Assembly (NCBI GenBank): GCA_000934665.2
Contig: KZ538407.1
Span: forward strand, 1 to 64,000
Length of the DNA: 64,000 nt
Reading direction: 5' to 3'
From: Catajapyx aquilonaris
Lineage: Eukaryota
Below are positions 3,801 through 64,000 of the stretch, piece by piece. Position 1 is the first letter of the stretch; each line of letters starts with the position of its first letter. A model generated the notes under the pieces. That model did not search any database and was not told where the DNA came from. It was given only the letters and a program-made list of their open reading frames with translations. The translations under genes were made by a program, and so were the position numbers.

Positions 3801-4782
3801 GGGGTATTGTTCCCTGATGAAGACGACCGTTGGACCGCGTGTTCGCCCACGTACCGGATGGGCCCCCAGGAAGCCTGTCCGCCCATACAATGCAGGCCAC
3901 AACGCAACGGTCAGATTGTTACACCCAGCAACCCGGAGTTGGGTACAGGGTGTGGCAGAAAGTACTCACCCTCACTGCTGGCTGTGTGGTTGCCGGCTTC
4001 TGTGTGTGAGAGAGCGAAAGAGGAGGGAGGGATGACGGCGGTGCAGCAGACCCCACGACGCCGACGACGCCGGCGCTTCCGTCACCCGCCCCGCCCAGGC
4101 GCCGTAGCCAGATCCATAACCAAAACCCTCACACATACATCTACCCCCCCCCAAAAAAGAAGCCGGCAACAATTCGAAAATGTCGCTCCTTCGGGCATTA
4201 TTGATGTCATCTTTCCGTTCCTAATAGGCTTATTCTCTCCGTCGGATGTTTGTCCAACCTGATAGTACCACTATTTCTCGCACGACCTGAGAGTGGCACG
4301 GAATAGTACTGGGTGGTAAAGCCAGCTAATTCTTTGTCGCTGCCATACTGATTATAAGTTTCCGCCAAATTTTGGCAACGTGTTCACTATAGTTTGATTG
4401 TCATCTCGAAACACATTGCCAGCCGTATTGTTGGTTGCGGATTCGACAGGATGCTGCAGCTGGACCGTTTATAATTCTTCAAGGCTACATGTGTACAGTA
4501 CAGTACATGATCTGGGCGCCGGTGTGTGACGAAACCAGGGATGACTCAGTGGGACTGTAGGTCCCAAGTTGAAGAATCGTAAGTGTGAGCTAGAGGGCTT
4601 ACCCCCCCCTACATTTCCCCCCCACACCCACCCACAGCATCCTCCACCCACCCACGACCAGCGCAACTTCTTCCCCCCTCTAATTACACAATACCATCAG
4701 AGCATGACCTTGCTCCTACAAACCGAGGACACAACTTTTCCCACCCACTCACTACAATACGACCTGGCACACACAAAAAAAA

Positions 4783-4890
4783 NNNNNNNNNNNNNNNNNN
4801 NNNNNNNNNNNNNNNNNNNNNNNNNNNNNNNNNNNNNNNNNNNNNNNNNNNNNNNNNNNNNNNNNNNNNNNNNNNNNNNNNNNNNNNNNN
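4783..4890. other. Assembly gap (108 N)
   Basis: Run of n characters. Confidence 1.
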
Positions 4891-8297: not shown

Positions 8298-21257
<12,960 letters not shown>

Positions 21258-27500: not shown

Positions 27501-30500
27501 TGGCCGCGCTCGCCAGCTTCTCCAGGCCCACCACGTACCGGCGTTTAGCAGTGATGATCTCGCTGTGGGAAAAACGGGATGGTCACAATTTGAAAACCGA
27601 GACGGGAGGGGGGGCTCACTTTCTCTTTCTCTCCAGTAGCGACTCGTAGGTGGCCAGAAGCTCGATGTAGGACGTGGGTGTGACGTAATAGTGCCGCTGC
27701 AGCTCGGCCAGGAACTGGAAGCTCAGCTCCTCGGTTGAGGTGTGGAAGTACTGGCACATTTCGATGCAGCCTTCCCGCTCCAGCTCGGACAGCTCCATGT
27801 TGTCCAGCGCCCGCATCGCAACGGCCTGAAGCGCATCTGGCGGCCACGGCTGTTCGAAAACAGCCGGTTAAACAAAGCTACGTCGTGAGCAGCACCCGGC
27901 GGATTACCTGAAACCAATCGATGGTGCAGCAGTTGACCAGCGACGGGAACTTCCGCAGCCGGTTGCGGAAGGAGTCTCCGATGGGGCTCATTGCCAGGAC
28001 GATGTGCAGCTGCTCCTTGATCCGCTCGATGAACAGGTTGAACAAGGCCACGGGGCTTCCGTCCGTCTGCATGCTCTTGTCCCTCTGCCTGTCCCACTGG
28101 CGCATCTTCTCGCAGATCTCCTGCTTCTCGTCCGTCGGATACAGGTTGGGGACCTCGCCAGAGTTGAGCAGGCTGCTCACGTCCTCCAGGAACGACTCCT
28201 CCTTGATCTGCAAATTGGGCCGTAATGACGCCGCGGACACAAATGGGCGGAGGAACGTACCTGCGTGTCGGTGAAGAGGAAAACGGCGTGGGTGTCCGAG
28301 GTGATTGTCTTCCGGAGCATGGCCTTGACGTCCTCCCGCCACTCCGTCATTCCGTACCCTTTGTTGATCTCCACCTGGAACATCTCGTCGTCCGCTATGT
28401 GCGCGGCCAGTCGCGTCAGGGACTGCCGGCCCGACCCGCCAACCCCGACGAGCAGGCAGTGTCCGCTGGGCTGCTTCAGCACACGCGATATCTTGGACAG
28501 ATGCTCGATCGCGAACTTGAACAGCACCAGCCGCATCGGCTTCTTGCTCATGTTGTTGAACTCGTCCAGGTAGCCCTCGACAACCTCCCGGAGCTGCTGG
28601 AGGTCCAGGACCTCCGCGTAGAACCTGTTATCGTTCTTGGGGTCGCCAAAGTCACAGTAGATCAAGTTGCGGATGTCGTCTTCAATAACCTGGAATAGCC
28701 GGAATCGTCAGCAGGTTTTCATCTCGAATTGAACAATTCGGACCGACCTGTCCTTTCCGATCGACGTCCAGGCGGGCCATCAGCTCGTTGAAGTCCTCCT
28801 TCAGGCGGTACTCGCATATCTCCGACAGCGACGAGAACAGCCAGGCGCGGTCGTCGTCGTCCACCAGCCGGTCGTAGTACACCCTGAGCACCTCGTGGAC
28901 CCACAGCCGCTTGATGTCCGCAAGCGTCTTGGTGGTCTCCGGGACGGACAGCAGCACGCCTTGGATGACCCTGGCGAAGTCCCGCAGGTTGAACAGGTAG
29001 TGCGACTTGGCCGGAGTGGGCAGCAGGTTGGCCATGGCCTGCTTGTGCAGCACCAGCGTGGCGCTCACGATCTGCTCGATGCACGGGTCGAAGTCCTTGC
29101 TGAACCCCCGCGCGTCCAAGTGCCACAGGATGATGCGGCTGAAGATGTTCTCCATGATGGAGTCGTCGAACTCGTTCATGGTGATGGTGTTGAAGTGCCG
29201 GAGGAACCGAGCCGTCACGTTGTTCCGGCCGCCCCCCGGCGGCCCCATCGCGGCCACTATCTGCAGGTCGATCAGCTTCTGCGGCACAATCTCCTTGCGG
29301 TCGTACCAGAAGAAGTGGTCCACCCACTGCCGGAGCAGCTCTATGGGAGGCTGCGCCCCGTACGTCTCCACCTGCGGCATGTTCAGGTCGTCCACAAACA
29401 CGATGCACTTCTTCCCGACGGGCGGCCCAAAGACGCCCTTGCGCCGCTTGTCCAGCTTGCTCATTATTATGTCCTGAGTCTGGTTGGCGGACGTTTGCGC
29501 CGAGAAGTTGATTATAAGCGGCATGTACGTGTTCCGGGGCAACTTCCGCAGGACCGTGTCCTGCAAATTAGTCGCAATTAGCCCCGAAGCGATGGCGGCG
29601 AGGGCACCGCACCTACCGTTATGTACACAGACTTGCCGGTTCCCGTCGGACCGACGTACAGCAGGGGCTTCTGGTGCAGCACCAGCAACTTCATGAGGGC
29701 CGTGTACCGCACCGTATCCACAGTGGGCACGATGATCTGGTTCACCTGCGCCTCACGCGGGATGGGCGGCACGTTCTGCAGCTCCTCGTCCCACTTGTGC
29801 CACTCGCCCCTTTCCTGCGAACAATTCGTATTAGCGTCGCATGTAAGCCGTACGACCGAGGGCGCACCTCCTGCACGAAGAAGTACGAGTAGATGGACTC
29901 CTCCGTCGGGAACGACGTGAGCAGCTTCACTTTCTCCGCCTGCGCCAACGGTCCGGATCGCTTGCTGTTGATCAGCTGCTTGAAGAAGATGTCGAACTTG
30001 GAGCGTCCGGTGTCGTCGCAGCTGGCTCCCAGCGACCAGATGACCGAGAACATGAACATCCCCTCCAGCAGGCACTGCACGACTATGATGTCCAGAGTGG
30101 CCACGTGCTTCGGATCGGTCAGGACGCCCAGCTGGCACTCGAACAGGTTCATCGCGGATCTGGCCAGGTTCGAGTCGCTGGTAGGGGACAGCTCTTTGAT
30201 CCCGCACTTGCGGACAAAATGAAGGGTCGGCGGCAGGAAGTGCTCGAACATCCCCCGTATGTGCTTCAGGTACGGCTCGATCGTCTCCGGAAGGGTGTTC
30301 AGCCAGGAGTGCATGACCGGCTGCCATCCGAGGGACGCAGGCTCCATGTAGATCATCCCGCAGCGGGACACCGTCGCCGGCGAGGCCACCTCCAGGTCCA
30401 TGGGCTCGAATATCAAGTTGGTGGAGTTGGACAGCTGGATGATCTCGCCGGACATGAGGCACAGCTTCTTGTTGTCGTCCAGAACCGTGTTCATGTTCTC

Positions 30501-33500
30501 GATCCAAACCGCGTCGACAGGCCCGTCGAATATCAACCACTTGCTGCGGACAGAAAAAGTGCTGTACTAAACGCCTTTCGAGATGAGGGATGCTTACCGG
30601 TCCGGAGAGGTCGACACCGCGAAATTCCGGTAGTTGACGGCCAAGATGCCATCGGACCACTCGTGGGAAGCCGGATCGAACTGCCCGTACAGCTGTCCCA
30701 TCGTGATCGACTTGGGGTTGATGATTGCGACCTGAACCTTGTTCTCCTCCATCTCGCCCTGGAATAAAAAGTCAGTCAGCCGCACATTGCTGGTCGCCCG
30801 AATCGACTCACTCTCTCGCACATGTCCCCCAGTCCGCCGGCCAGCGCCCGATACGAGGAGGTCTTCCCTCCGAAGGGCAGCCCCACGATCATGAACCCAT
30901 GCCGCACTATCATCATCTCGTATATCTGCTGGATCTTCTCCAGGAAGAAGTCCGTGCACTGCAGGTTCATCTTGATGCAGTTCTCCTTCACGGCTATGTT
31001 CAGCAGGTCGTAGTCCGGGACCGGGAGCTCGATGCCGGGGAACAAGTCGGACGTGATGCCCTGCGTAAAATCAAGGATGAAAATTTTTGCCAACTTCGAA
31101 AGCGGGAGTCGCGCTCGTACCTGAAAGAGGGGAAGGTCCTGCGCAAGAAACTTGGCCAGGTTCACATCCTTGATGGACCTCAGAACGAGAATGTCCTCCT
31201 GTTCGTCCGGGTACTTCAGCTTCAGGTTTCCGGCTGCGGTCAGCACCGACTTCACGGCTCGCATTCCTGAAACGGCAACAGGCGGATTAATTCGAGTTCA
31301 ATCCGGTTCAACCCAGGTACGTACCGTAATCGTAATGGTGCTGCGACGACAGCTGCTCCGAGCAGAGACGATAAGTTGCGACGATCTTGACCGAGAGCGG
31401 CCGGGCCGTGACGAACCCAAACGAGTACAGGACAATCTCGGAGATCAATGCGTAGTCCGGCACCATCATGGCCACGGATCGGAACAGCGCCTTCAGGTTG
31501 TCCGGCAGCTCCGATCGTCCCGCGTAACCCGGGTTCATCGTGATGAAGGTGGCGCAGGTCGGATCCAAAGTCAGCTCCGTCCCTTCAAAAAGAAGGGTCG
31601 ACGAACCGGAATTGATCCCGCGCTGGATGGTCAAAATCTGCTGAGCCACCACCGACAGCACCTGCGGAATGAGCCGGTTATTAATTAGCCAATCTTTAAA
31701 AAAATGGGGGCTCACCTCGAGGTCAATTCGGTTGAACTCGTCGAAGCAGGACCATGCGCCGCAGGAAGCCAGACCCTTGAAGAACTTCCCCAATGCGATG
31801 TAATCCAATCCGTCGGAGCAGTTGAACACGACGCACTGCTTCGCAACGGCCTTCGCCAGATCCTTGGTCGTCTCGGTCTTCCCGGTGCCGGCCGGACCCT
31901 CGGGAGCCCCGCCCAAATGCAGATGCAGGGCGCCGAATAGCGTCCGGTAGCAGCGGTCAGTCAGCGGCGTGATGACCAGCCTGGGAGTGTTTCCGAGGTA
32001 CTCGTACCCGTACGGAAGCATCGAGTTGATCATTCGCGTCAGCATATTGTCCTCCACCCAGTAGTAGCGCAATTGGGCCAGCCAAGTGAAGTCGTTGGGC
32101 TCGCTCACGTTCAGCTTGACCAGCTCGGCCAGTACGTCTCTGGCGTGGACGTCCAGCACGACCAGAGCTCCCAAGGTGACCCGGTTCTGCTTGTTCAGCT
32201 TCCCTCTGACGAGAGCGACCACCTCGTCTATCTGGTGGTTGTTCAGGTCCAGGAATTTCTGGAGGGTGGTCGGGTCCTTCACCTCGAAGGAGTCCTGGAT
32301 GTCGAGCGTCCAGTAGAGCTGCGAGACGGCCAGGACGGCCTGTCCCGCGTAGTCCAGCACCCACTCGGCTCGCGGGCGGTCCTTGTAGCCGGCTATGGCC
32401 TCGACGATCACGTTCCGGACGCTCGTCTTCATCAGGATCTCCAGCTCCTTCAGCCAGATCTCGACTTGCCCACGGGCAGCCGCGGTGCTGATAACGGCGG
32501 TCAGCGCGACGGACTCATCCTCGCTTGAGATCATCCGCGTGACATCCAAATCCTCGGTGAAGTTCAGCCGAGCGATTCCTTCGAAGCACTTCTTCAGATG
32601 CGGCTGCACCCTGCGGAACAAATTGTTACGTACAGCCGCGATTGACAAGCGAGCGTCCGCACCTGGTCGGATCCTTGGTCTCCGAGAGGATTTCCAGCAG
32701 CTCGTCGTTGGACAGGAAGAAGAAGCGGGGGAAGTACAGCCGCTTCTTCTCCAGGTAGTCGTTCAGCCCCTTCTGGATCAGCTCCAGGAGCTCGTTGGAC
32801 TTCTTCAGCCGCTCCAGCATCTTGTCGATGGACAGAACGGACATTACGTTCTTGTCCGTATTCGTGGTCTTCATGATGTCCCTCCAGGTCTGCCGTAAAG
32901 AGCATGCCAATGAGAGCGCAAAGAAACAAAAGGGGAGCTCATCCTGCGAACCTTATCGACCGTGGTGAACCGCCTTCCTTCTTCCGGCATCTGCGCCATG
33001 ATGTCCGGAGACGAAAAGATGGGCTCCAGGTACAGCCAAGTCGCCTGGACCTTCAGCCAGTCGTCCAGAATCTCCTGGAGGGTCAGCATCTTGCGCTCCC
33101 ACTCGCTGCGGCGGAACAAGCGGGTTTAAAAACAAGCGGCATAAACGTGCCGCAAACGGACTCACGTGATTTGGGCCTCGAAGGGCTTGATGAATGCGGA
33201 TCCTCGCATCGTCTGCGTCTTCACGATGTGGTCGTCCAACAGCAGCTGGATGTCGTCCACCGAGGCCACGACGTACGTTCCGGTCTCGCGGTACGGGACA
33301 ATGTGGAACTCCATCCCGGCCCATTCGGACTGCATCTTGTTCATTCCCTTCTCAAGCGAATGCTCCTTCGTGGCCGCCTCGCTGATCCCTTCAAACTTGG
33401 GGATGAACTCGTCCAGGTTCATCTCGATCACCTTGGCCAGGGTCGTCTGCGAGTCCGCCCGCAGAGGGAAGCCCACCACTTCGGACACCTTCTCCCAATG

Positions 33501-36500
33501 GCGGTCCCTCAGGCCCGGGTTGCCCAGGGTCTGCACGATAGGCAGGTGCTCCTTGAACTCCTCGATCCTATTCCGCACTTCGAACACCATGTCCTTTGTC
33601 GTGGGCGAGTCGGAGAAGCCCTTCTCCAGCTTGTACACCGTCCGGTAGAGGGTCATCGTCTCCTGCTCCACGTCCTCGGGGTTGTACGTCCCGATCTTGC
33701 CGCTCATCCACCTCTCGTAGTTGCCCATGAAGGTGTTGGCCGTCTCGTAGAAACGCAGGTACGGGTTCAGCATGTCCGCCACCTGCCTCCGGACGGGGTA
33801 CTTGCTCTCCTCCCATCCGAACGCAGCTTCCTCCGTGTTGAACTGTTCGACCTTGTCCGCGGCCGCCTCCAGCTTCCCGTTCAGATGCTGCGCCTTCTTC
33901 AGGTAGCGAGGAAGGTCGTCAAGCTCGTCGTACAGCAGGAACTCATCGGCCATCTTCCGGTAGGCTTCCAGGTCGTCGATGAACCGCTCGCGTCTCAACT
34001 GCAAGGCAGACAGATCAGAAGCCGCCAGATAATAACCCGGGGGACACAAACCTTGAGCGAATCCTGGAAGTCGGCCGTCTTGTCCTTCATGATGGTGTAG
34101 TGCTCGTCGAACACAGCCGGCATGCGTCGTTCCCAGCATACCAGTATCTGCTGTGCTTTCATGTCAATCGGCGATATGGTCGTCCGGTCGGCCAGTGCGG
34201 AGAAGCGGCGGGACAGGTCCTTCAGGAGCTCCTGCAGCTTGGCGAGCTTCTCGTCCTGAATCAGCTGGACGGCCTCCTTCTGCTCCATCAGCTGGGCCGT
34301 GTTGCCCGGTATGCTGAGCGCCCTCTCCGCAATGTTCTCGAAGGAGTTGGTCAGGTCCTTAACGGCAAGGGCGTGATCCTCGACCACTTTGGTCATCAGC
34401 CGCTCGCGAAGGGCGTCCGTCTTCTGCACCAGCCCGTGAATCAGCTGCTCGCAATGCACCTCGTAGATGCCGATGTACATAACCCGCACGTTGTCGCATG
34501 CAATCTTGTCCGCAACGACCTGCAGCTCGTCCAGCTTGTCCATGGTCGCCTTGAAGGTTGGCGTTGACTCCATGAACTCCTCCAGCTCTGCCTCGGCCGT
34601 TCCGTCGTATATGAAGTTGTACTGGCCGTACGTCTCAGCGTGTGCGGTCGGACCCTGATTCTGCTCAGCTAGGAAGTTCTGCACCCGCTTCTTCGCAGCC
34701 TCCACAATTTCAGGCAGGATCGTCGGCTGCAACAACCGGATTAGACAGGTCCACAAACATCAACGGCCCCCAACATACCTTCAAATACTCAACGACATCG
34801 GTGCTGATTCCCGATGCCCGACATTCAACCCGCTGGATCGTTGCCACTGCGGCTACATGTCGGTCGAACACCGACAGCAGCGTCCGCTCCCACTCTGCGT
34901 ACGACGGATCGGGCAACAGCTCCCGTCCACTAGACACCAGCCGCATCACAAACTTGGGCTTCACGTCGTCAAACTGCGGACAAATGCGTTACGTACGAAC
35001 AGCTGCAGTACTGATCCAACTTACCCGAGCGCAGCAGAGATAGTCCGCATAGTCCTGGATACTACTGAGACATAGACTCTGAAGATGCCGTTCCATGAGC
35101 GTACCCAGGCAGTTGAAGAAGCTGCGTAGCCGCCTGGGTTTTTCCATGGGCGGTACGACGCCCGGCTTACGTGAGCAGACGTTGATGGCATTGTTGACTG
35201 ACGGCATCCACTTGCGGTTCAGCTCCACCACCGCAATCTCCATGTGGTTGTGCGCCTGCTTCTGGAAGTCGCTTATCTCCAGCGGATCCGTCCGTTCCAG
35301 CAGCAAAGTCGGGTTGAGGAGCCGCAACTTGCTGAACATTGTCTCCCAAATGTCGTGCACTCGGGCCATGCAGATCGAGTACGCGTGCAGGCGGTACATG
35401 ACGTACCGCTTGGCAAACACAATGTCCCGGTTCCACGGCTTGGGCATCACGAGCAGCTCCTGGGGGAGGGTCAGCTGCGGGATGGGCCGCCACGGAGACG
35501 CAACAGGGTCGGCGTCGCACAGCACAAAGTCCATCACAGACTTCTTCATGGCCAGGAGGTACAGCTCGCACACATGGTCCGACAGCTGCCCGGCCGACTT
35601 GGCCAGACTGTTCCGGAGGTACTCCGGCACCTGGTTCAGTATGTTGCACAGCCAGTCGGTGGGCAACGGGCCGACCTTCTCCGTCGCGATGCCGTTGTGC
35701 ATGTAGTAGTAGTATCGCAGCCGTTCCCAATCCAATGTGTCGTCAGCCGGGGTCAGCTTCTGTACACGCTGCAGCTGCACCTCCCGCTCCTCCCCTTTCA
35801 TCAGGTCAACCAGCAACGAGCGGTAGTTGGCCCGCTTCTTTATCATCCCCAGGTAGTCCCACAGCTTCCCTTCCTGCGGACACAACCAGTTAGCTTTGGC
35901 TCCGTCAATGAACACTACAGTGGCATTTCCAACTGAACATTATTGTGGCTATGCCAGTGGGTTTTCCAGTGATCATCACAGCAGCTTCTCCAAATGAACA
36001 TTATAGTCGCTGTTCCAATGAACGTTATTGTGGCTGTTCAAATGAACATTATTGTGGCTTTTCCAATAATTATGAACCTTATTGTGGCTATGCCAATTGA
36101 ACGTTACGGTGGCTTTTCCAGTGATCATTACAGCGGCTTCTCCAAATGAAGGTTATAGTGGCTGTTCAAATGAACATTATTGTGGCTTTTCCAATTTATG
36201 AACGTTATTGTGGCTCTGCCAATAAGCAAGTATGGAGGCTCACCCTTTTTTTCCTCTTGTTTTCCGTTTTTATTGGCTCAATTTCATGAATTTCAAGGAA
36301 GATGTGGATTCCCTAATGAACGTTATTGTGGCTTTTCCAATTTATGAACGTTATTGTGGCTCTGCCAATAAGCAAGTATGAATACCCACCCTTTTTTCCT
36401 CTAGTTTTCCGTTTTTAATTGGCTCAATTTCAAGGAAGACGTGGATTCCCTAATGAACGTTATTGTGGCTTTTCCAATAACGAACGTTATTGTGGCTTTT

Positions 36501-36769
36501 CCAATAATGAACGTTATTGTGTGGCTTTTTCCAATAATGAACGTTATTGTGGCTGTGCCAATAATGAGAGCAAGTAGTATGGAGATGGAGACTCGTACCC
36601 TTTTCTTCCCCTTGTTTTCCACTTGGCTTTTGGGTTTGGTCCCAGGCAAGGTGTAGAGGTCCTTCCTGAGCATCTTCTGCTTGTCGTTTGGCACAGCGGA
36701 GGTGACCATCACTCTCTTGACCGGCCTCCTGGGCATGGGGACGCCGAGGGCGGCCAGCCGTTCCTCCAT
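21564..36769 (-). CDS. DNAH7: Axonemal inner-arm dynein heavy chain, DNAH7-like, complete multi-exon gene
   Basis: AAA1 GPAGTGKT and [11 protein letters not shown]2 [11 protein letters not shown]3 [11 protein letters not shown]4 GVGGSGRQ, stalk/MTBD, C-terminus [14 protein letters not shown]...[16 protein letters not shown]-terminal [18 protein letters not shown]...KKSVMDFVL recalls DNAH7. Most introns ~50-65 nt; first coding exon 36599-36769, last 21564-21770. Confidence 0.93.
35907..36565. repeat. Minisatellite (~24-27-bp unit AATGAACGTTATTGTGGCTTTTCCAAT) in DNAH7 first coding intron, with higher-order duplication
   Basis: Many degenerate copies. The block ...TTGGCTCAATTTCA...GTGGATTCCCTAATGAACG occurs twice (~36260-36345 and ~36405-36480). 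Confidence 0.9.
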
Positions 36770-36939: not shown

Positions 36940-37190
36940 GCGTCCGTCTCCGGGGAAACCGACGCCCACCGTATCCGAGAGAGTCATTACGGTAGCGGCG
37001 GCGGCGGCGGGGGAATTCGAAAATTCGAAAATTCGAAAATTCGGCGAGGGACCAATCAGAGAGAGAGAGACACTCGCGGCCAATCAGAGACACGCACTCG
37101 CGGCCAATCAAAGACACGCACTCGCGGCCAATCAGAATGAGGGCAGGTGACGTAACAGTCACGTGATGACGCCATCGGGCGCCATCTTGT
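36940..37190. promoter_or_regulatory. Putative bidirectional promoter shared by DNAH7 and Rag-like copy 1
   Basis: X-box-like GTCTCCGGGGAAAC (36946-36959), four CCAAT boxes (37052, 37080, 37104, 37128), TGACGTAA (37148), E-box GTCACGTGAT (37158-37167) and YY1-like CGCCATCTTG (37180). Lies between divergent start codons at 36769 and 37461. Confidence 0.7.
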
Positions 37191-37460
37191 ATTCGCTTTC
37201 CAACGGCCGAAGAAGAGGGATCCGCTGGCGTCGCGTCGTTCTATTCGGTTCTTCGTGCTGTGGAAGAAGCCCTGTTGGTTTGTGGACTGGGTCCTGACAA
37301 GGCAGGGTAGTAGAAGATACATAGACTGTGGAGACAGGTCGTGGAAACACAAGGTCAGTTCAAAAGGGGGGTCAGAAGTAGGCGAGAGGAAGGGGGGCTG
37401 GGGTGGGGAAAAAAGTCCTGTTCCAATTTGCAGAGAGAATAATAATAAGCGAGCACAGCG

Positions 37461-39700
37461 ATGGATCAGAAGTTTAACCGTGCACCGTGCGGACCAAAGA
37501 CTGGGGCAGTCCCCAAACGACCGGTGGTTGCTGGACCCAGGGCAGAGGAGGCTGCTTTGGAGGAGACAATGGCTGGGCTGAAATTGGGCAGGGCGCAGAT
37601 GGAACGTCGAAATGTGCCTGCTCGTCGACCCCATCAGGCTGCGGGGATGGCACCCAGACCACCCCATGCACCAGCCACACAGCCTCCGCATCTAAACGGG
37701 GCACTAGAATACTGCAATAAGCGCTCCGTCATTATTGTAGGCACTCCGAAGTAAGTACCAGTACCTGTCCATTGGAATTGTTGCAATGAGCACTCACACC
37801 ATTGGTTGCTGCAGAGGTGGCAAAACCTACGTGAAGCGCACGGCATTTGGTGTGGAGAATGCAACTCACATCCAGCAAGGAGGTGTGCAGGTCCACGACC
37901 TGTCCTCACTTTCGTTCTTCCCGCTGCTGGTCAAGGAAGTTCCAGGCGATTCGACAAGAAAGATCGACCCTCGGCTGTTGTCCACAGGACAGTCCCTTGC
38001 AGCCTTCCTCTGCGTCGTCGGTGTCGCACCTAAGGTGAGTAATATTAACCACTACACACCACAACTGCACTACTGCATACTATCGGGTTCAAATACTTTT
38101 GGCCACTTTATCCTGGTCTTGACGCAACCCTTCTCACACACCCCATGTTAAGAAGGTGTGTGAGTGTGAAGGGTTGCTTCAAGACCAGGATAAAGTGGCC
38201 AAAAGTATTTGAACCCTATAGTATCAACAGTTCAAAAAGAATTGTCCCAGTCATCCTGACGTGTGGGCTGGCCGCTCGACACACACCATGTAAGTTACAT
38301 GGTGTGTGTCGAGCGGGCAGCACACACATCAGGATGACTGGGACAATTCTTTTTGAACTGATGATACATGCCAATATTTGTTTCATGCAGGACACGGAGG
38401 AGACCATTTGCAACTCCATTAATCTACTGGCTAAGGCCCTACAAGCAAGCAACCAGCAGGCTCGCGTCTACATCCTGCTCAATTGGTTTGGGCAGGAGAG
38501 ACTGACCACAGCGATGGGTGTGCGGAAGAAGATTAGAGGGATCTTGCAAGTACCACTGTGCAATGAGAGCCATCCGCCTCAACTGCTGGAGTCCATACAC
38601 TCCCACGAAGATATGAAGATGGTGGGTGAGGTCATCATCCGCAACCTGTTTGCATCAGAAGTGCAGGAGATGAATGCATTCCTGCAGGAACTGCTCAAGG
38701 TGAGTCAAGTGGGATATTACCTTCCCACTGCAATCGTGTCACTTACTATGAGCAAGAACAATGACTGCCATTCATAACACTACTGAGTTTGCAAATGTAA
38801 ATTCATATTCATTGTCACTCTTTCATTTCACGCCCAAAATCATGCCACTGGACAAAAATCCTCAACAGTGTTGCTAATAGTTGCATTAAACAAGCTGGAT
38901 ATTCCAGGCATTGGCTGAACGTTATTGTTTGTATACTGCTGGGGGATAACACCATGTACTTTATTGCTACTGTGTTGAGTATATTACAAGACTGTGGTCT
39001 CTGCTGTTATTGCTTTCAGAACCACCCCGCAAGTACAGCCTGCTTAATAGACAACAGGAGGCAGCCAATTGTTCTCCAGCCATGCGGCATAGAGACCCCC
39101 TGGATGATGCAGATCTATAGGGCAGCTCCAACTGCACTACAGGGGTAAACATCATGAGAGGATTTTTCCGTGCCGATATTTACACACCTCATTTTACTAC
39201 TTTTTGACAGCAAGGACAACGGCCAGGAGGTTGGAGGTGTAGTGGAAGTGCAAGGCGAGCTTGGTGTTTTCAGGACGATCTGGCGTATCCATGACAGAAT
39301 GTTCCTGTGCATTCTCTCCAACGAAGGTGACATAGGTAAGCTTTAATTGTTGTGGGGTGCATCGCACTTATTTGGGGTGTTGCGTGCCCATAGTCCAGGA
39401 GGAGAGAAGTGGGAGATCAAGTGTAATCCTGCTGTCCATTTGTTTCACGGGAAGCAAGAAACTGCAAGTGAATGTGGCTTTGTTGCTTATCCTTAAACTG
39501 CTTGCAATGGGAGTGACCAATTCACAACTTTTCCCTTCTGCCCTCCTCTTCGGCAGTGGACTGGAAAGTGAGCCGCCTTTTATACGATTTAATTTTGGAT
39601 TTCCTTTATTCCAGGTGTATCTCTGGAAACTGTCTTGGATATAAATGATATGGTGTGCCGAGCACGCCATAGGTTCATCACCTGGCCGCCATTGGGGTAG
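37461..39700 (+). CDS. Divergent RagC/D (Gtr2)-like GTPase-fold protein, copy 1; exons 37461-37750, 37815-38034, 38391-38699, 39020-39144, 39211-39335, 39615-39700 (optional exon 39394-39567)
   Basis: Spliced product has VIIVGTPKGGKT (P-loop), VHDLSSLSFFPLLVKEVPGD and LAAFLCVVGV. GT-AG junctions are in frame, and intron positions/phases match copies 2 and 3. Confidence 0.75.
38085..38216. mobile_element. Hairpin MITE family D in intron 2 of Rag-like copy 1
   Basis: About 50-bp near-perfect arms (TTTGGCCACTTTATCCTGGTCTTGA...); same family at 43753-43870. Confidence 0.8.
38221..38367. mobile_element. Second hairpin MITE in intron 2 of Rag-like copy 1
   Basis: Near-perfect ~145-bp fold-back (GTATCA.CAGTTCAAAAAGAATTGTCCCAGTCATCCTGA...TCAGGATGACTGGGACAATTCTTTTTGAACTG.TGATAC). 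Confidence 0.8.
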
Positions 39701-40850
39701 TTTGTGGGACACTTACCGCTTTTTTACACTTAAAAAGGACAGGCCGCATTTTCTTAACAAGCTTGCCCTTGACGGTAATAAAACGAAACTAAGAAGTCAT
39801 ATCCAATCTTCAGACTCAGATTATGTTTCCAGATTAAGGCAAAATTTGACACTTTGACATGACACTTAAAGCCCATCCACTCCTTCTCGTGCAGCACATG
39901 CCTACTTCCGCTTCCCCTCCCACCTCATGACATGATTGCCAGCCCTAAAATGCATCCCACGGACATGGTTACAGAAGGATTTACTGAAATCCAACGGCAG
40001 TCAGGTTAAGGGTATGTTGCGAATGAAAGCACCCACAGCCTTGTCCGTTACGGTGTTCAGTATTCCTAGGAGACATGCCAAGTCTGGTGAGATGTCGAAA
40101 ATGCAATTGGGATGGTCCTGTGTAATTAAGGGTTATGCCGACCGTCATCAGTTATTCTCAGCCACATTTGGATACTTTCGGAATGGCCATGTCTGCTCTC
40201 AATCCGTCCATGAATATGCCTTGCGGTGTGTCACAAGTATTTACGACTATGCATTGTTTACATTTCTTCTTCTTTTTCAATAAAGTAGCCTAGTGGTTCT
40301 ATACAAATTGTGCATGATTTGATGTCCCCATACACCATACACGTAATGCGAGTCAACCGCAAAAGTAGGAGTCCACCCCGTGACAATGGCAACTGCTTGA
40401 GGTAAACAGTCCCTGCCAACATGGTCACACGGATGTCAACAAATGGGGCCATTCTTAATGCCAGCAGGAGACGGGCATTAGAACAGGTCGCTTCCGATCA
40501 ATAAAAGATGCTCACAAGCACAAGGGAAGTGTTGTCCGTGGAGTTTCTGAATGCAACTTGGCACAATAATATAGGCAGGTAAGTTATTAAAAGAAAATGC
40601 AAACAATTTAGGCGGACGTCCACGAGGTCAAAACTTCTCGAACTCACAAGGGACACTTTCCAAGGTCTCGCAGATTTTTCTTGAAATTCGGTACATTTGG
40701 TAGGCCACCCCCAAGGGATGAAAAACGCACCTAAAGTGACCTGCTCAAAATGAACCAGTTGACCGGGGGGGCAGAGGTCAACTCTTAAATTCGGTGCATT
40801 GGTAGCCCCCAAAAAGGGGCCATCGGGTCATTTTGAGCAGATCACTTTAG

Positions 40851-41854
40851 CAGGGCTGGCTTTATGCATTTCCTTTTATAGGCCATTCACTTTGTGCCGC
40901 CCCTCCCCAACGCCACTCCTTCAATTTAATTATTTATACAAACTGTGTATGTGGTTTCGTGTTATAGGCCTAACCTAAATATCATAAATAGTCTGTGGGC
41001 CTATAAGAAAGAGTTTAAAAACATGGTAAATTACTAAATAACACTATTTTGTCCATGGAAATTTATTGCTTTTTTCATGTTCCTTAAGTCATTCGTAAGT
41101 CATAATGACTGTAATGACCATCCATTTTGTCTTCGATTTATTTTTGACATCTGGACAGTCAACAAACCCAAATCCTCCAATACAGCAGTTCTTCCCCAAT
41201 CAAGCGGGCCTAAATGTTGCTAGACCATCTCGGATTTTTCTGAAAATAATCACAGGTATACACACCTATGCCATAACACTGCATGTAAAGTTTCAGCCAA
41301 ATTGCGAAATACCACGGGGAAGGAAGAAATAGCGAAATTTTGTAAATGAGGCCTTTTGGGGGATATTTTTTTTTCGGGTAAAAACTGCTATATATTTGAG
41401 GACTTTGGTTTTTTTTTTATTGCCCCGAGGTCAAAAACAAATGGAAGACAAAATGACCTAAGGAACACGAATATGACGATGAATTTACATGGACCAAAAA
41501 TGGCCAAATTTTGTTGCATAGTGTAATTAAGGCAATTTACTAGTAATTAATATATTTCAACGAAATGAAGAACATGGGGCATTGTTTTCTCCCCATGGCG
41601 CAACGGATAGCTGGCCTGCGATTGGCTAAAACAGTCAATCACAGGCCAGCTCAGCTCTATTTTCAAAGTTCACCCCCAACGACTCGACTTATTAAATACT
41701 AACAGCCAGGCCTCCTCCTGCTAACATTGCCGCCCTAAAAAGTCATCCGGTTAATATCAGAGAAACAAAAATGTGCCGCCCCCGGCCGCCCCACAAAAAT
41801 TTGCCGCCCTATAGGCCACGGCCTACTGGGGGCCTATTGGTAAAGTCAGCACTG
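40851..41854. mobile_element. hAT-like non-autonomous element nested in the fold-back
   Basis: TIRs CAGGGCTGGCTTTA / TAAAGTCAGCACTG; imperfect 8-bp TSD CACTTTAG / CACTTTTT(AG); subterminal TGCCGCCC repeats. Confidence 0.7.
41030..41550. mobile_element. Degenerate inverted-repeat element nested inside the hAT-like element
   Basis: ~41030-41190 is an imperfect reverse complement of ~41380-41550. Confidence 0.55.
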
Positions 41855-42342
41855 CACTTTTTAGGTGCGTTTTTCATCCCTTGGGGGTGGCCTACCAAAT
41901 GTACCGAATTTCAAGAAAATCTGCGAGACCTTGGAAAGTGTCCCTTGTGAATGTTCGAGAGGTCATAACTTTTGACCTTGTGGACGTCCCGCCTAAATTG
42001 TTTGCATTTTCTTACCTGCCTATGTGCCAAGTTGCATTCAGAAAACTCCACTGACAACACTTACACTTCCCTTGTCAGTTATCCGATTCCCATTTTCAAA
42101 TATTGCGGTCAAGTTGACTCCCATATTAAAAAGGGGCGTCCAAATGGGTGGTTCAAATTCAAACGACGCGCCGTATTCAATTAACTGTGACGTCATGCCA
42201 ACTGTGCCTCTGTTCCTCCCCCCAATAAGATTTTGCTGTATAACTTGCATGTCAAATCGCTTCGTCTCAGAGGATTTTAAACAAAAACAAGTGCGTTCTT
42301 TAAATGTGATTATTTATAAAAATGTCAAATCGGGTGGATGTG

Positions 42343-42640
42343 GGTTGGCAATCCTGATGAACGACCGTTAATTTGTTGGCAACCCTGATGAACGGCCGTT
42401 AATGTGTTGGCAACCCTGATAGAACGGCCGTTAATGTGTTGGCAACCCTGAGAGAACGGCCGTTAACATGTTGGCAATCCTGATAGAACGGCCGTTAATT
42501 TGTTGGCAACCTTGATGAACGGCCGTTAATATGTTGGCAATACTGATAGAACGGCCGTTAATTTGTTGGCAACCCTGATGAACGGCCGTTAACATGTTGG
42601 CAACCCTGATGAACGGCCGTTAACATGTTGGCAACCCTGA
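42343..42640. repeat. Minisatellite, ~9.5 copies of a 31-32-bp unit TGTTGGCAACCCTGATGAACGGCCGTTAA(T/C)
   Basis: Directly visible head-to-tail copies with no unique spacers. Confidence 0.95.
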
Positions 42641-42858
42641 GGACGCCAATTTATCCGGCCCTGAGGCCGCCATTTTACACGCCACGGGGCTCCTGGAGTC
42701 TTTTACTGTCTCGTTCAGGGAAAGGAAAGGGAGATCAACAGGCGGGGAAGTAAGTTGGGGGTCAGAGGTCACACACACACACACACAGGCCAGAAGGTAG
42801 CTGAAGGAACACAGGTTAAGGTGGACTCTCTCTCTCTCCCCCCCTCCTCCCCCCCAGT

Positions 42859-44568
42859 ATGAGTGACTATAGAGAAGTGCATCGGGGAGGACAACAGTGG
42901 AGCTCAGATGCGCAGGCTGTCCACCACCAGGGGAAGGCCAACCTGGAGTTCCGCAAGAGGACCCTTATCATTCTGGGCACCGAGAGGTACGTTGGACTGG
43001 CAGTGGAATTATTGTTGGCAGGGTGATGAGCACTCTTTTACCTTGGTTGTTGCAGGTCCGGGAAGAGCCTCCTCAAGCAAGTGGCCTTTGATTGCGGGAC
43101 TGGCGGCGCTGCAGATCTGGTGAAAGTGGATGACCTGTCCTCCCGCACCTTCCTTCCCATGGTGGTGAAGGAGGTGCCGGGGGACTGGCAAAGGAAGCGG
43201 CTCAACACTGACCGCCTCCTAGGACAGTCCTCCGGAGAGTCTGGCGTTGTCGGAGCCATCATCTGCGTGGTTGGGGTGAAAGAAAACGTGATTAATTGAT
43301 TTCCTTGTTTACTGCAGTTCTGCTATGCTGACTATACTGTACATGCCACGATTTGTTTCATGCAGGACACCGATGCCACCATCTTCGCAATGATTGTCCA
43401 GATGGTTCAGGCACTAGAGGGAGGTAACCAGCCCGTCCTTGTGTATTACCTCCTCCACTGGCTATGCCAAGAGAGGCCAGACACTGTGATGAGAGTACGA
43501 CAGAAGATGAGGCAGCTACCAAAATCCAGGCTGTGCAGTGACTCCTACCCAGCACTGGAGTCTGTTCACTCCCGACATGGACTGATCATGTTTGGAAACA
43601 CGATCAGGCAAGAACTGTTCTATCAGGATCTGAAGGAAGTGAACAAGTACCTGGAGGAGCTGCTTATGGTGGGACATTACACTATGGTTGCCAGGGTTGA
43701 CACACCTCAGCTTCTCCACATTTTGACACGTGGACAGACCGTCATGTACTATAATTGCTTTGGCCACTTTATCCTGGTCTTGAAGCAACCCTTCACACAC
43801 ACCCACTTGCTGACCGTGGGGCCTGTGCGAAGGGTTGCTTCGAAACCAGGATAAAGTGGCCAAAACAATTTCAGCCCCATAGTACTCGAGGCTGCTGTTA
43901 TTGCTTTCAGAAATGCGGAGCAAACTCTGCTGCGCTAGTCGACAGCCAGACGAAGCTGACAATCACCATGCGGCCATTGACATACCAGAACCATTTGATG
44001 GTGGACTCTTACCGTGCAGCACCCACCAAACTCTACCAGCTGAAGGGGTAAATATCAGTGGGATTTTCCTCTCCTGATATTATTTTACAGGCCACTTTTT
44101 CCCCCCTTTCTGGCAGGAAGAAGAGCAAGGACATTGGCTCTATGGTTAGAGTGGATGGCGAGCTTGGGGTGGTTATGACGATTGTCCGCATACATGAGCT
44201 CCTCCTGCTTTGCCTTCTCTCCAACGAAGTAGGAGTAGGTAAGCTCAAATAGTTGTGGGTGCGTGGTGCCCACTAATTTGGGGGTGGTGCATCTGCACAG
44301 TTCAAGAGGAGGGAAGGAAGAGAAGGTTGAATCAAGTGCAGGCGGTAGGTTTGTTGCATATCCTTCAACTGCTTGCTGGGAGCAAACAATATTCAAAACT
44401 TTTCTCCCCTGCCCTCCTCTTCGGCTGTGGACTGGAAAGCGAGCCACCTTTTATACGATTTAATTTTGGATTTCCTTTATTCCAGAAGTCTCTAAGAAAA
44501 CTGTGTTGGAGCTCAATGAGCTTGCTTGCCATGCCCGCCATCCATTTCTCACCTGGCCACCGCCATAG
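42859..44568 (+). CDS. Divergent RagC/D-like protein, copy 2; exons 42859-42986, 43056-43287, 43366-43668, 43911-44047, 44117-44238, 44486-44568 (optional exon 44301-44438)
   Basis: TLIILGTERSGKSLLKQVAF (cf. RagC [19 protein letters not shown]), KVDDLSSRTFLPMVVKEVPGD (cf. [20 protein letters not shown]), KCGANSAALVDSQTKLTI (cf. NSGIEKAFLFDVVSKIYI). In-frame GT-AG junctions. Confidence 0.78.
43753..43870. mobile_element. Hairpin MITE family D in intron 3 of Rag-like copy 2
   Basis: Arms nearly identical to 38085-38216. Confidence 0.8.
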
Positions 44569-45569
44569 GGCTTATCCCAAGAATTTTCCTGTGAGCAAAG
44601 TCTTAGCCGAGCGACATCACTGAGTAACGTGATTAACAAATATTGTTTGAGATGAAAATCATTTCTTACTTTCACCTAAAACAATGGTTACTCAGCAATG
44701 TTATCGATCGGCTTTAGGCTTGTCTTTGATGAAAATAAAAAATAAAACTCAAAAGTTGTATTTTATGTTTGATAAATGTTTTCAGATTATGTCTAATGAC
44801 ACTTTCACATTACAATTAAAGCCTGTCTGTCCCTACTCGTGTGGTCACCCTCCTTCCACCTGATGCCTACCATATTATGCAGATGATGATGATGCACTAC
44901 CCGCCTTACAATGCGTCCCATTAACATGGTTGTTGAAGCATCCACTAAAAGCCAATGGCAGCAAGTTAAGGGTGTGTGGCAGGGGTCCGCTTCCCCTTTC
45001 ACCGAAAGGCGACCATAACCAAGAATCGGCTAGAAAAAGTCCCAGGAAATTAGACACTTACTGTAAATAACAATGATGTAGCCTAAAGTACAAAAGAAAT
45101 GCAAATAGGATAATCCAAGTATCTTTTGTTATTAGAAATTTCGCTCGAAGCTGTTATTTTGATGTACTTGTAGCTTGTTGCATGTAGCCATGGCAGCCAT
45201 GGCCGTGAAGTAAACAGTCCCTGCCAAATTATGGAGTGTCAACAATGGGGCACATTCTTTAATCTTGGTGGAGGTCATTCGACTGACAGCAGGAGACGGG
45301 GCATTAGAACAGATCTGATTATATCAGCATCTGCATCGTCGGTTCTGTGCTCACTCTTCCACTGGACACGGCAGCATCTGGTTCGGCCTCTCTCGTCGTT
45401 GGATCTGTCGCCATCAAGTGATGGACCACTTGTAAGCAGGACACAGCCTCATCTCTTTTTCTTCTCCAAACGACATTGTTGCTCCATTTATTATTGTTGT
45501 TGTTGAAGCGAGGACGAGAGTTGCATCTCGCCGAGTGGAGTGAGCGAGGCGTCGTCCCTTCCCAGTCCC

Positions 45570-47223
45570 ATGGACACCCCGTCGCCCGTGCCCTCCTCGC
45601 TGGACAGTCCGGTGCTGGGGGGTCCATTGGACGAAGGAGGAGGAGGTCATCTCCTCCCGCCTCCACCCTACAGCCCCATATCACCCATGGCCGTCCTCCT
45701 CATGTCGCCTTCCCTGCTGGAGGCAGCAGCCGCGGCCATGGACTGCCAGGACTGCCCGGTGGAGTGCAGCACACCGGACGCAGAGGAAGAGGACAAGCCC
45801 CGAAGCAGCAGCAGCAACAGGAGGAAGAAGAAGCAGCGGTTCTCATCGGAGACGTACCTGCGTCCGGACACGGGGGCCGTCCCCAAGAGCACCCTGTCCG
45901 CACCAGCAGCCGGCATCACCACGGCCTGGCCACCACCAGCACCTCCGTCTCCTCCCAACAACACCCGAAAGGGACCCAGGCCAGGACCCAGGCCGGTCGG
46001 GTACGGGAAACGCACGGTGGTCATCATGGGTCCTCACAGGTACAGCAGTGTCCACTTATGTCACCCGAGTGTTTACCACAAATAACCAATCCATCAGGAG
46101 CGGCAAGAGCACCCTGAGGCAGCAGGTGTTCCTAGGGGACAACGCCAGCTGCAACGGGAAGCCCCAGGACCACGACCTGTCCCACTCCAGCTACCTGCCC
46201 TTCGAGGTCAAGGAGCTTCCTGGCCACTGGTCCTCTTGGATCGAGCTGGTACACGCCTCCTGCTGCGGGGTCTTTGCCGCTTTCGTCGGGGTCGTCGACG
46301 TACACGTGAGTCTCCACCAACATATACCGTGTTAACTATTCAGATCTCGAACATGGTGCGCAGGGGGACCCGAGGCACGCCCTGGAGACTGTCCAGTCCA
46401 TGTCCAGCTGCATGGCCAAGTTCCCTGTCCCGGCCAGGGTCTTCTTCCTGCTCAACGCCTTCGAGACGGCTGAACCGGACAGCGTCCAGCAGGTGCGGGA
46501 CGCCCTGGCCATCCGTCTTCTGGAGGACCAGTCCCTGCGGAACGGACCGCTCCCTCCAGAGGTGTTCGTGGCATCGGTGTACGACGACAGCCTGCACCTC
46601 GCCTTCGAAGTCATCCTCCGCGGACTCTTCGCAGACGTCGTTCTCGCGCTGGACACGTTCCTCGCCCAGCTGATCCAGGTACTGTCTCACGGATTCACAT
46701 TGCCACACACTACAACAATGATGCCCTGCAGTCGTGTGGGGCCAGCTGCGCAGCCCTAGTGGACAGCCACACTCTTCTGACTGTCAGCAGGGCGCCCATT
46801 GACCTTCCAGAGAGTCCCGTCGTCGTCTCGGCCATTCGATCCGGTGCCAACACCCTCAGGATGGAGCACGGGTATGTGGACAATTGGAGTACTCCTTTGA
46901 GCATTGTTGCATTGATTGTTTCCACAGCCCTGCCGAGTGCCAGGAGGTCGGGTGCAGGTCAGAGAAGGAGATCCTCCAGGGGATTGTCCAGACGGCCTTC
47001 AGGGTGCACCGTCGGCTGGTGCTGGTCACCCTCTCGCACAAGGGAGCCGTCCTTGGTCAGTCTCCGCATGATCCGATCGGTACTGGTATGGTTCTAACAA
47101 TGTGCGGTGCTTCTTCCCGCAGATGTTCCAGCGGAGAAGATAAACCAGCTGAACGGACTGGCTCGCTCTCTGAAGAAGGCCATAACCACGCCACAACGGA
47201 CACCCACGTCCGACATAAACTAA
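45570..47223 (+). CDS. Divergent RagC/D-like protein, copy 3 (most canonical); exons 45570-46039, 46098-46305, 46364-46678, 46732-46871, 46928-47055, 47123-47223
   Basis: VVIMGPHRSGKSTLRQQVF, DHDLSHSSYLPFEVKELPGH, AAFVGVVDVH|GD, VFVASVYDDSLHLAFEVILRGLF (cf. RagC [23 protein letters not shown]), SCGASCAALVDSHTLLTVS, SLKKAIT. AATAAA at 47295. Confidence 0.82.
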
Positions 47224-47472
47224 GCACACACGTCATACGCAACAATTGTAACGTTGTAATTGTTTGTTCTTCACACGGATGTGCCCTGCCGATCAATAAA
47301 AATGATGTTCAGTTATCCCAATTAATGTTCGAAAACATTCGAATCGAGCGCCGTCTGTTGGCAACATCGGCCCCTTTCTGTTGGCACCCCTGCTGCATGC
47401 GACCAAAAGGAAAACAACGGAGCAACGTGGGGCGCACCTATTTTCTCTTCAGAACAACAAGAGGCAAAAAAG

Positions 47473-47961
47473 ATGGCCAAGTTGTTGGGACTGGACAAGC
47501 TGAAGAGGGCCTTTGACATCCTGAGGGAGAACGGGGGGATCAGGGCCTCCCTCTACAAGCTGTACAGGCAGGACGAGCTCAAGACGGGCACGCTGGTCGG
47601 TACGGACAAGTACGGGAACAAGTACTTTGAGAACAAGATGTACTTCTACGGTAAGCCGCTCTCTTCGCTCTCTTTCCAGTGGATGCCCCTTCAATTGCGG
47701 TTTCCGTTGACAGGTCGCAACCGGTGGGTGGAGTACAACGATGCTGTTGGGATGGATTACGACGGGAGCCAGGTCCCGGGAGAGTGGTTCGGATGGCTGC
47801 ACTACAAGACGGACGACCTCCCAACCAAGGTGGCCCCCGTGCAGTACAAGTGGATGCAGGACCACGTAGAGAACATGTCTGGGACGTCCGGTGCATACGC
47901 TCCCTACTCCACCACCACGCCTAAGATCGAAGGGTGGCAGCCAAAGAAAAAGTCCTCCTGA
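47473..47961 (+). CDS. NDUFA12: NADH dehydrogenase [ubiquinone] 1 alpha subcomplex subunit 12; exons 47473-47650, 47714-47961
   Basis: LYRQDELKTGTLVGTDKYGNKYFEN...GRNRWVEY...DGSQVPGEWFGWLHY...ENMSGT...YSTTTPKIEGWQP. 63-nt GT-AG intron; AATAAA at 48031. Confidence 0.96.
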   Translation: MAKLLGLDKLKRAFDILRENGGIRASLYKLYRQDELKTGTLVGTDKYGNKYFENKMYFYGKPLSSLSFQWMPLQLRFPLTGRNRWVEYNDAVGMDYDGSQVPGEWFGWLHYKTDDLPTKVAPVQYKWMQDHVENMSGTSGAYAPYSTTTPKIEGWQPKKKSS

Positions 47962-63044: not shown

Positions 63045-63191
63045 ATACACACCCTTCTTCGGGTAAAAGCTTTGCAAACGACAGCGTATCATCCAGCAGC
63101 CAATGGCCTTGTAGAAAGGTTTAACCGTACTCTATGTGATATGCTAAGTCACTATGTAGACACAAATCACATGAACTGGGACAGGGAACTG
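63045..63191 (+). pseudogene. Ty3/Gypsy-type LTR retrotransposon integrase core fragment
   Basis: TTAYHPAANGLVERFNRTLCDMLSHYVD...NWD, the region around the catalytic Glu of rve integrases. Flanks show no recognisable pol. Confidence 0.85.
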
Positions 63192-64000
63192 GGACTCCGG
63201 AGCATACAACTGTACTATAGGTTAACTCCACTATATGGATCACAAACCCGTTTTATAGAAACGGCCCGGAATTGCGATTTAATATTGAAATCTCGTCCCA
63301 AAGAAAATTGCATCGTTTTGGAGCAGTTGGCGTCTGATGTTTGTCCGACCTGATAGTACAGCTATCTCTCGCATGGTGGCAGAGATGCGCCATCTATGAG
63401 TTAAGAATAGTACTATAAGTGGGTATAAATCGGTCTCATTAAAGTTGTTTGATTGTCACAAACGTGGCATCGAGTTCGCTAGTTATCTTTAATCTGGTGA
63501 TGGCGATAATCGGCAATTAGCTGGACTAGACGCGTAACCGAAGTTATCGGTGCTAATCCGGCTTGGCCCAGTTTAGTGCAAAGTTAGGCGTAGATCTGAT
63601 TACCTGCTGGTCTTGGCCCCGGGTATATATAGTGAAGACGGAATAGTTTCTGGCTGCCCCTTGGCCCGGAGTTTACCCACCTCCTCCAACCCTCCCCGGG
63701 CTCTGTAATGAAGACGAAGTGTATCCATGGCCGAGTTGACAGTCTACTTACCCCCTTTGATTCCTGGAGGGACGACAACACTGCGGTCTCGGGGACCCCT
63801 GTGCTGGGCTTTGACTGCTCATCCAGACCCCGTGTTGCTGGCTGCTCCTTTGCATATACACCTTCCACCTTCCAAAGAAATTCGCAGCTTCCTTTTCGGC
63901 CCGACCACTTTAGACACTTTCTCATCAGATAGGATTCAAAGGAATGCAGTTCGACGCGAGCAGGGCAGTCAAATGGGTTATGCCACTGTTGACATATTGT

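Follow-up and report, generated by a model that had tools for sequence, protein, structure and literature searches.

A tandem trio of divergent, putatively RagC/D-derived genes in Catajapyx aquilonaris

Few components of the nutrient-sensing machinery are as conserved, or as low in copy number, as the Rag GTPases. These act as obligate heterodimers in which an A/B-type subunit joins a C/D-type one, bound to Ragulator, and they dimerise through a C-terminal domain of the roadblock/LC7 type. Rag proteins carry H-K-x-D as their G4 motif and, to our knowledge, working Rag GTPases retain both [NTH]KxD and the Asp of switch II. PseudoGTPases are proteins with a GTPase fold and degenerate G motifs, which act as scaffolds. 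Here we analyse three tandem genes, designated A, B and C, whose products show similarity to RagC/D and which lie in a stretch of 64,000 nucleotides (nt) from Catajapyx aquilonaris (contig KZ538407.1, positions 1 to 64,000, assembly GCA_000934665.2), hereafter the window. The literature searched, as far as the retrieved portions of text extend, presents the vertebrate RagA/B and RagC/D pairs as the only functionally distinct Rag paralogues (PMC9481461), and the retrieved portions of open-access articles contained no description of divergent extra RagC/D-like genes in animals.

The closest comparison is with RagC and RagD (RRAGC, RRAGD; PDB 3LLU, 2Q3F, 6ULG, 7T3B and others). An R-S-G-K-S-type P-loop is common to these proteins and to products B and C; the region between the P-loop and the switch-II P-G aligns with RagC residues 72–121, a D-[IL]-S-x-x-S-[FY] block included; in C, the latter half of the G domain matches the Pfam family Gtr1_RagA; and the P-loop lies at a similar distance from the C-terminus. 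In contrast to RagC and RagD, A, B and C lack [NTH]KxD, contain Glu instead of the switch-II Asp and Asp or His instead of the Gln that follows the switch-II Gly, and their switch-I region is four residues shorter; additionally, A and B are too divergent for Pfam, the genes occur as three tandem copies, and their roadblock domain is putative. RagA, RagB and Gtr1 belong to the same Pfam family (PF04670), and the Atlas look-alikes of C exon 2 are headed by Gtr1 and RagA. However, a profile of exon 2 from the three genes retrieved no RagA or RagB chain at E ≤ 10, even though RagA chains are present in RagC-containing PDB entries. As regards pseudoGTPases, A, B and C appear to retain a G-domain ancestry with degenerate G3 and G4 motifs and, by analogy, may work in the same mode, but their Walker A motif is intact, leaving some nucleotide binding plausible.

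Gene structure and maintenance of the three copies

Splicing by script yielded three tandem genes on the + strand, A (37461–39700), B (42859–44568) and C (45570–47223), each with six coding exons and a single open frame interrupted only by the terminal stop, for products of 384, 334 and 453 amino acids, respectively. An earlier, sequence-only reading of the window had placed the cluster at 37461–47223, which agrees with our models, beginning with an ATG at 37461 and ending with a TAA at 47223. The exons, all defined by the splice model and supplemented by the other evidence named, and the polyadenylation signals are as follows.

37461..37750, + strand: gene A exon 1, with donor GTAAGT; contains the ATG, the N-terminal extension, the first strand and the first half of Walker A, and ends in phase 2
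37815..38034, + strand: gene A exon 2 (also exon-2 profile and motif scan); remainder of Walker A and switch I/II region with E-V-P-G-D
38391..38699, + strand: gene A exon 3 (also motif scan); second half of the G domain, without [NTH]KxD
39020..39144, + strand: gene A exon 4; start of the C-terminal domain
39211..39335, + strand: gene A exon 5
39615..39700, + strand: gene A exon 6, with stop TAG at 39698–39700
39777..39782, + strand: AATAAA of gene A, 77 nt past the stop
42859..42986, + strand: gene B exon 1
43056..43287, + strand: gene B exon 2 (also exon-2 profile)
43366..43668, + strand: gene B exon 3
43911..44047, + strand: gene B exon 4
44117..44238, + strand: gene B exon 5
44486..44568, + strand: gene B exon 6, with stop TAG at 44566–44568
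44734..44746, + strand: two AATAAA of gene B in an overlapping range, 166 and 173 nt past the stop
45570..46039, + strand: gene C exon 1; Pro/Ser-rich N-terminal extension of 156 codons, then the first half of Walker A
46098..46305, + strand: gene C exon 2 (also exon-2 profile); Atlas look-alikes headed by Gtr1/RagA clusters
46364..46678, + strand: gene C exon 3; match to Pfam Gtr1_RagA, profile positions 94–188 of 232
46732..46871, + strand: gene C exon 4
46928..47055, + strand: gene C exon 5
47123..47223, + strand: gene C exon 6, with stop TAA at 47221–47223
47295..47300, + strand: AATAAA of gene C, 72 nt past the stop

All 15 introns of the three genes have GT..AG boundaries, and splicing of the three genes bore out the previously proposed six-exon layout, with identical intron phases after exons 1 to 5 (2,0,0,2,1). 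The five introns share columns of the three-way protein alignment (185, 269, 374, 420 and 463), the second intron of gene C being at column 265 instead of 269, next to a gap; the introns of gene C are short (53–67 nt). In A, B and C, intron 1 interrupts the Walker A motif (G-x4-G-K-[ST]) within the codon of its fourth residue. Consequently, a stop-to-stop list of open reading frames (ORFs) contains only exon-sized pieces of these genes, as anticipated from the sequence-only reading, which had attributed their hidden nature to the split P-loop. The same reading described the products as aligning end to end; this holds from just upstream of Walker A to the C-terminus, the distance from Walker A to the C-terminus being 291–300 residues in the three products, but not for the N-terminal extensions, which are not alignable.

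Comparison of the spliced products with the window by tblastn gave E values of 3.8e-30 for A/B, 3e-6 and 6e-6 for A/C, and 1.7e-5 and 1.7e-4 for B/C. These matches were confined to the corresponding exons, and the same comparison found no fourth copy of the family within the window. Judging from their sequences, the similarity among A, B and C is not due to chance. Protein identity is 47% between A and B, over 290 aligned codons, 33% between A and C, and 31% between B and C.

Exon lengths differ between A and B by 12, 6, 12, 3 and 3 nt, all of them multiples of three, with a nucleotide divergence of about 41%. Identity between these two genes at codon positions 1, 2 and 3 is 0.62, 0.72 and 0.42, respectively, over the 290 codons, and this order (2>1>3) is the pattern expected from a protein under purifying selection. 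For the same pair, the NG86 method estimated 0.44 nonsynonymous (dN) and 1.72 synonymous (dS) substitutions per site, with a dN/dS ratio of 0.25, and the ratio was 0.35 with LWL85 and 0.16 by maximum likelihood; ratios for A–C and B–C were 0.37–0.43 (NG86/LWL85), with saturated dS. In terms of the dN/dS and disablement check that had been suggested for these genes, the ratios (about 0.16–0.43) are thus below 1 and the frames carry no disablements. An AATAAA is found 72–166 nt downstream of every stop. Genes A, B and C are, by these measures, real-looking, intact, selectively maintained and highly divergent tandem paralogues.

Rag-related signals and nucleotide-binding motifs

Family searches were done with single exon translations, with three-sequence exon profiles, or with intron read-throughs containing X at stops, which were built where the intron length was divisible by three (introns 1, 2 and 4 of B, and intron 4 of A). 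The Pfam scan covered 12 exon translations at E ≤ 10, and the PDB set comprised 177,635 distinct sequences, also searched at E ≤ 10. Exon 3 of gene C matched Gtr1_RagA with an E value of 1.1e-4 and 22.1 bits, for a gathering score of 22, over positions 94–188 of 232. These positions correspond to the second half of the G domain, which is the location expected from the place of exon 3 in the gene. The other 11 of the 12 exon translations had no Gtr1_RagA match in Pfam.

The exon-2 profile of A, B and C produced 13 matches in PDB, nine of them to RagC or RagD, including the top seven, and the remaining four to FimG. The best match was 3llu_A (E 0.074), and RagD 2q3f_A was recovered with E 0.35; no chain of RagA/B or any other GTPase appeared at this threshold, although RagA shares entries with the chains that were found. 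The alignment extends over RagC residues 72–121, from the S-G-K-S of the P-loop, through the D-I-S-N-S-S-F block, to D-F-P-G-Q in switch II. Among the named clusters of language-model look-alikes in Atlas, Gtr1 ranked first (0.90), RagA second (0.88) and Rag fourth (0.87) for C exon 2, and exon 3 of the same gene gave GTPase clusters of the TRAFAC type, Gtr1_RagA occupying rank 20 (0.83). Two different exons therefore match one family in the right order, which supports a Rag ancestry although each result is marginal, and A and B are grouped with C because of their mutual similarity in tblastn. Together, the evidence is concordant across two exons and weakly suggests a Rag ancestry, of the RagC/D type, for the G-domain half.

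Each of the three products contains exactly one Walker A (G1) motif. Conversely, a regular-expression scan found no [NTH]KxD, the G4 motif for guanine specificity, anywhere in the three spliced products, and DxxG (G3) is absent from switch II in A, B and C. In the exon-2 profile alignment, switch II reads E-V-P-G-D in A and B and E-L-P-G-H in C, as compared with D-F-P-G-Q in RagC, so that the switch-II Asp is replaced by Glu in all three and the residue following the Gly is Asp or His; the switch-I stretch is shortened by four residues with respect to RagC in the same alignment. Rag landmarks had previously been described here as all present in order, albeit rewritten. In fact, [NTH]KxD is missing outright and the switch-II Asp is Glu. 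Loss of the G4 and switch-II motifs leads us to expect changes in biochemistry: phosphate binding may persist, whereas the recognition of guanine and the chemistry normally carried out at switch II should differ, an expectation for A, B and C based on established knowledge of G motifs.

For the C-terminal half, neither the exons nor the B read-throughs had anything relevant in Pfam at E ≤ 10. The span of 291–300 residues between Walker A and the C-terminus is compatible in length with the 399-residue RagC chains, in which the P-loop is at residue 72; this is the sole positive point for the putative roadblock fold of the C-terminal half. An AlphaFold2 model of the read-through of B exons 1–3, built from a seven-row alignment with X in place of three intron stops, reached a mean predicted local distance difference test (pLDDT) score of 46.0, too low for fold comparison.

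Searches for relatives in protein collections returned 540 candidates for C exon 3 in a word-indexed collection, none of them at E ≤ 0.01, and 4328 candidates for the exon-2 profile in the word-indexed collection, none at E ≤ 10; likewise, with the exon-3 profile, HMMER detected none at E ≤ 0.001 among 1.84 billion representatives. Since the protein collection holds arthropod proteomes, but with no more than 65% identity to the NDUFA12 encoded in the window, these results are weak evidence for lineage restriction. Two other Pfam candidates were judged to be due to chance: DUF5818 on C exon 4 (18.8 bits, for a cut-off of 27) and DUF5580_M, which did not reach the cut-off, on A exon 3 (E 0.027). 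A preprint (10.64898/2026.09.11.750891) describes the C-terminal part of DUF5580_M as EF-hand-like.

Favoured explanation and alternatives

We consider it probable that A, B and C are maintained tandem paralogues that originated from a RagC/D-type gene and act as Rag subunits with an altered nucleotide switch, A and B being, as part of the same explanation, the younger pair and C the most Rag-like copy. They constitute a real, unusual and probably lineage-restricted Rag-like family, for which we infer the following function. The ancestor would have been a RagC/D-type Rag GTPase gene, followed by tandem duplication. Each of the three products has a variable N-terminal extension and then about 290–300 residues from the intact Walker A to the C-terminus, a span that is collinear among A, B and C and whose first half is also collinear with RagC/D. 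While the phosphate-binding loop is retained, guanine-nucleotide switching would be changed or lost, resulting in a pseudoGTPase-like or state-locked Rag. Such a protein would still use its C-terminal domain to pair either with a partner of the RagA/B type or with one of its sister copies, and it would adjust signalling that depends on Rag and Ragulator in place of sensing nutrients by a normal GTP/GDP cycle. Dimerisation, nucleotide behaviour and a link to TORC1 are predicted properties of the three products.

Several observations weigh against this explanation. Every Rag-specific score is marginal, and the Pfam match is exactly at the gathering score, in one exon of one gene; A and B alone match no Pfam family, and neither does the single 270-residue read-through of B exons 1–3. 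The E values in PDB range from 0.07 to 1.5, and because the nine chains represent variant forms of just two human proteins, they amount to a single observation. Rag chains were absent from the PDB results of the exon-3 profile, of C exon 3 alone and of C exon 2 alone, and there was likewise no Rag result in PDB with the B read-through or with a mixed G-domain alignment (A2). Atlas is headed by RagA/Gtr1 and not by RagC/D clusters, leaving the subfamily call on HMMER alone. In the C-terminal half, an exon-4 profile and a profile of exon 4, intron and exon 5 had no PDB match each at E ≤ 10, and the AlphaFold2 model of B exon 4–intron 4–exon 5 had a mean pLDDT of 42.6, too low for fold comparison. 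The RagC/D-like identity initially assigned to the genes is partly upheld, by three concordant, marginal results for the G domain (Pfam, PDB profile and Atlas), but does not extend to Pfam matches for A and B on their own.

The marginal nature of all the Rag scores would also fit a different family of P-loop NTPases, either another type of TRAFAC GTPase or an entirely new one, with Rag signals arising by chance or from generic P-loop similarity. Indeed, for C exon 3 Atlas places a bacterial cluster of TRAFAC GTPases first (0.90) and also lists clusters of GPN/ATP_bind_1, Arf/Ras and EutP, and the C-terminal half has neither a PDB match (E ≤ 10) nor a usable AlphaFold model. We nevertheless regard this as quite unlikely, because two exons independently indicate the Rag family with the correct order and profile positions, and the exon-2 profile retrieved no other GTPase chain from PDB at E ≤ 10; moreover, its match runs well past the P-loop into the RagC/D-specific stretch (D-I-S-N-S-S-F ... 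P-G), and Gtr1_RagA accounts for three of the top four named clusters that Atlas gave for C exon 2. Alternatively, A, B and C could be the only RagC/D genes of this lineage, fast-evolving and recently triplicated, serving as the canonical partner of RagA in an ordinary TORC1 job instead of forming an extra family next to a canonical RagC, as might be suggested by C still attaining the Gtr1_RagA gathering score. This is unlikely, though slightly less so, given that [NTH]KxD and the switch-II Asp are missing from all three genes. Besides, other genes of the window show ordinary conservation (NDUFA12, 64–65% identity to distant arthropods; dynein stalk, E 2e-44, and stathmin, E 2e-35, both in Pfam), indicating that the genome is not globally fast-evolving.

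Hairpin transposon insertions in introns of A and B, together with A–B introns conserved as well as or better than the exons, might instead point to untranscribed or decaying duplicates, that is, pseudogenes whose frames have stayed open by luck. Yet this would have to accommodate three open frames of 334–453 codons with 15 of 15 splice sites intact, length changes that are only in frame despite the divergence of about 41% between A and B, the 2>1>3 codon pattern with dN/dS well below 1, and a polyadenylation signal after each stop, which makes it very unlikely.

Within the favoured explanation, that of maintained Rag-derived paralogues, a narrower and more tentative proposal is that A, B and C form a private tandem pseudoGTPase family, derived from RagC/D in an arthropod lineage, whose members retain the P-loop without guanine specificity and serve as permanently state-locked partners or decoys for RagA/Ragulator; we hold this version to be possible, with rather more to set against it than for it. 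If it were true, amino-acid signalling to TORC1 and to TFEB-type factors would be rewired in particular tissues or life stages, and a CLEAR-like box situated about 300 nt upstream of A would hint at feedback of the TFEB/MITF type. The A/B/C family would be a candidate lineage-specific TORC1 regulator, and three maintained Rag-derived proteins without the guanine-recognition motif would amount to a natural experiment separating switch-dependent from scaffold-only Rag functions. Genes of this kind evade annotation and profile searches because intron 1 splits the P-loop and the sequences are near the detection limit.

Cluster history, repeats and neighbouring genes

The collinearity of A and B covers their exons and introns and continues for about 750 nt into the 3' flank, whereas C shares only exon similarity with them. 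Nucleotide identity between A and B is 50–66% in exons and 59%, 72% and 78% in introns 1, 4 and 5, respectively, with 35–43% in shuffled controls; the introns are thus at least as conserved as the exons, whose third codon positions are 42% identical. The nearly identical 3' end of intron 5 is listed here with the hairpin insertions found in other introns.

38098–38223, A intron 2: hairpin insertion, similar to a miniature inverted-repeat transposable element (MITE-like), with sub-threshold microRNA-like Rfam matches only
38232–38356, A intron 2: hairpin insertion of the same description
39538..39614, + strand: final 77 nt of gene A intron 5, with 3 differences from the gene B counterpart; adjoining exons are 65–66% identical
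43757–43884, B intron 3: hairpin insertion of the same description
44409..44485, + strand: counterpart in gene B, likewise closing intron 5, from the A–B comparison

The last 39 nt of intron 5 are identical in A and B, and identity falls to 66% in exon 6. This conserved end is present in only two copies in the window and has no Rfam match, the sub-threshold microRNA-like matches being located on the transposon hairpins elsewhere. It shows no excess folding energy (z 0.26 and −0.61) and no codon periodicity of substitutions (21/13/19). Its conservation could possibly result from constraint on splicing signals, from local gene conversion or from an unrecognised regulatory element. The hairpins at 38098–38223 and 43757–43884 are copies of one element with 82.8% identity and, as they occupy different introns (intron 2 of A and intron 3 of B), they represent independent insertions.

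Between A and B there are perfect inverted repeats of 60 nt (40676–40735 and 41860–41919), 1124 nt apart. A DNA transposon or a foldback element, bounded by these repeats, has probably enlarged the A–B spacer. About 220–500 nt upstream of the gene B ATG (42344–42640), a 31-nt unit is repeated 9.5 times with 89% matches, and each copy contains the palindrome A-A-C-G-G-C-C-G-T-T. A candidate non-coding first exon of gene B, with donor at 42750 and acceptor at 42857, was read from the sequence, as was a candidate intron in the 5' untranslated region of gene A (37354–37433). Also upstream of gene A are a 24-nt unit with a CCAAT box, present 2.8 times at 37071–37136, and the sequence T-C-A-C-G-T-G-A (CLEAR/E-box-like) at 37159–37166, one of two in the window. 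The interval between gene A and the dynein gene described below harbours, at 35984–36567, arrays of a 24–28-nt unit (A-T-G-A-A-C-G-T-T-A-T-T-G-T-G-G-C...C-C-A-A) nested in a 146-nt higher-order repeat.

Directly 3' of gene C, on the + strand, is NDUFA12 (47473–47961; Pfam E 1.4e-28), with a short intron that reads through in frame. Its best matches, at 58–65% identity, are from arthropods of several classes, namely a centipede, a horseshoe crab, a mayfly, a dragonfly, a barnacle and a millipede, and none was closer. The host thus most likely belongs to an arthropod lineage that the protein collection lacks. On the other side of the cluster, a dynein heavy chain gene occupies 23055–35939 of the − strand with many exons, of which 26278–27582 matches the microtubule-binding stalk (E 2.2e-44 for Pfam MT). 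Farther from the cluster, at 8298–20825 of the + strand, a gene with MORN repeats (Pfam MORN, E 1.1e-20 and 3e-7) includes a long exon rich in Pro, and we take this gene to be junctophilin-like; an exon of the stathmin family lies at 26–571 of the − strand (Pfam Stathmin, E 1.6e-35). An N run at about 4750–4860, which is seen as X runs in the ORF list, corresponds to an assembly gap. Towards the far end of the window, the + strand ORF 62994–63350 has a weak match to the integrase core rve_3 (E 4.7e-4, below the cut-off) and, judging from this similarity, is probably a retroelement remnant.

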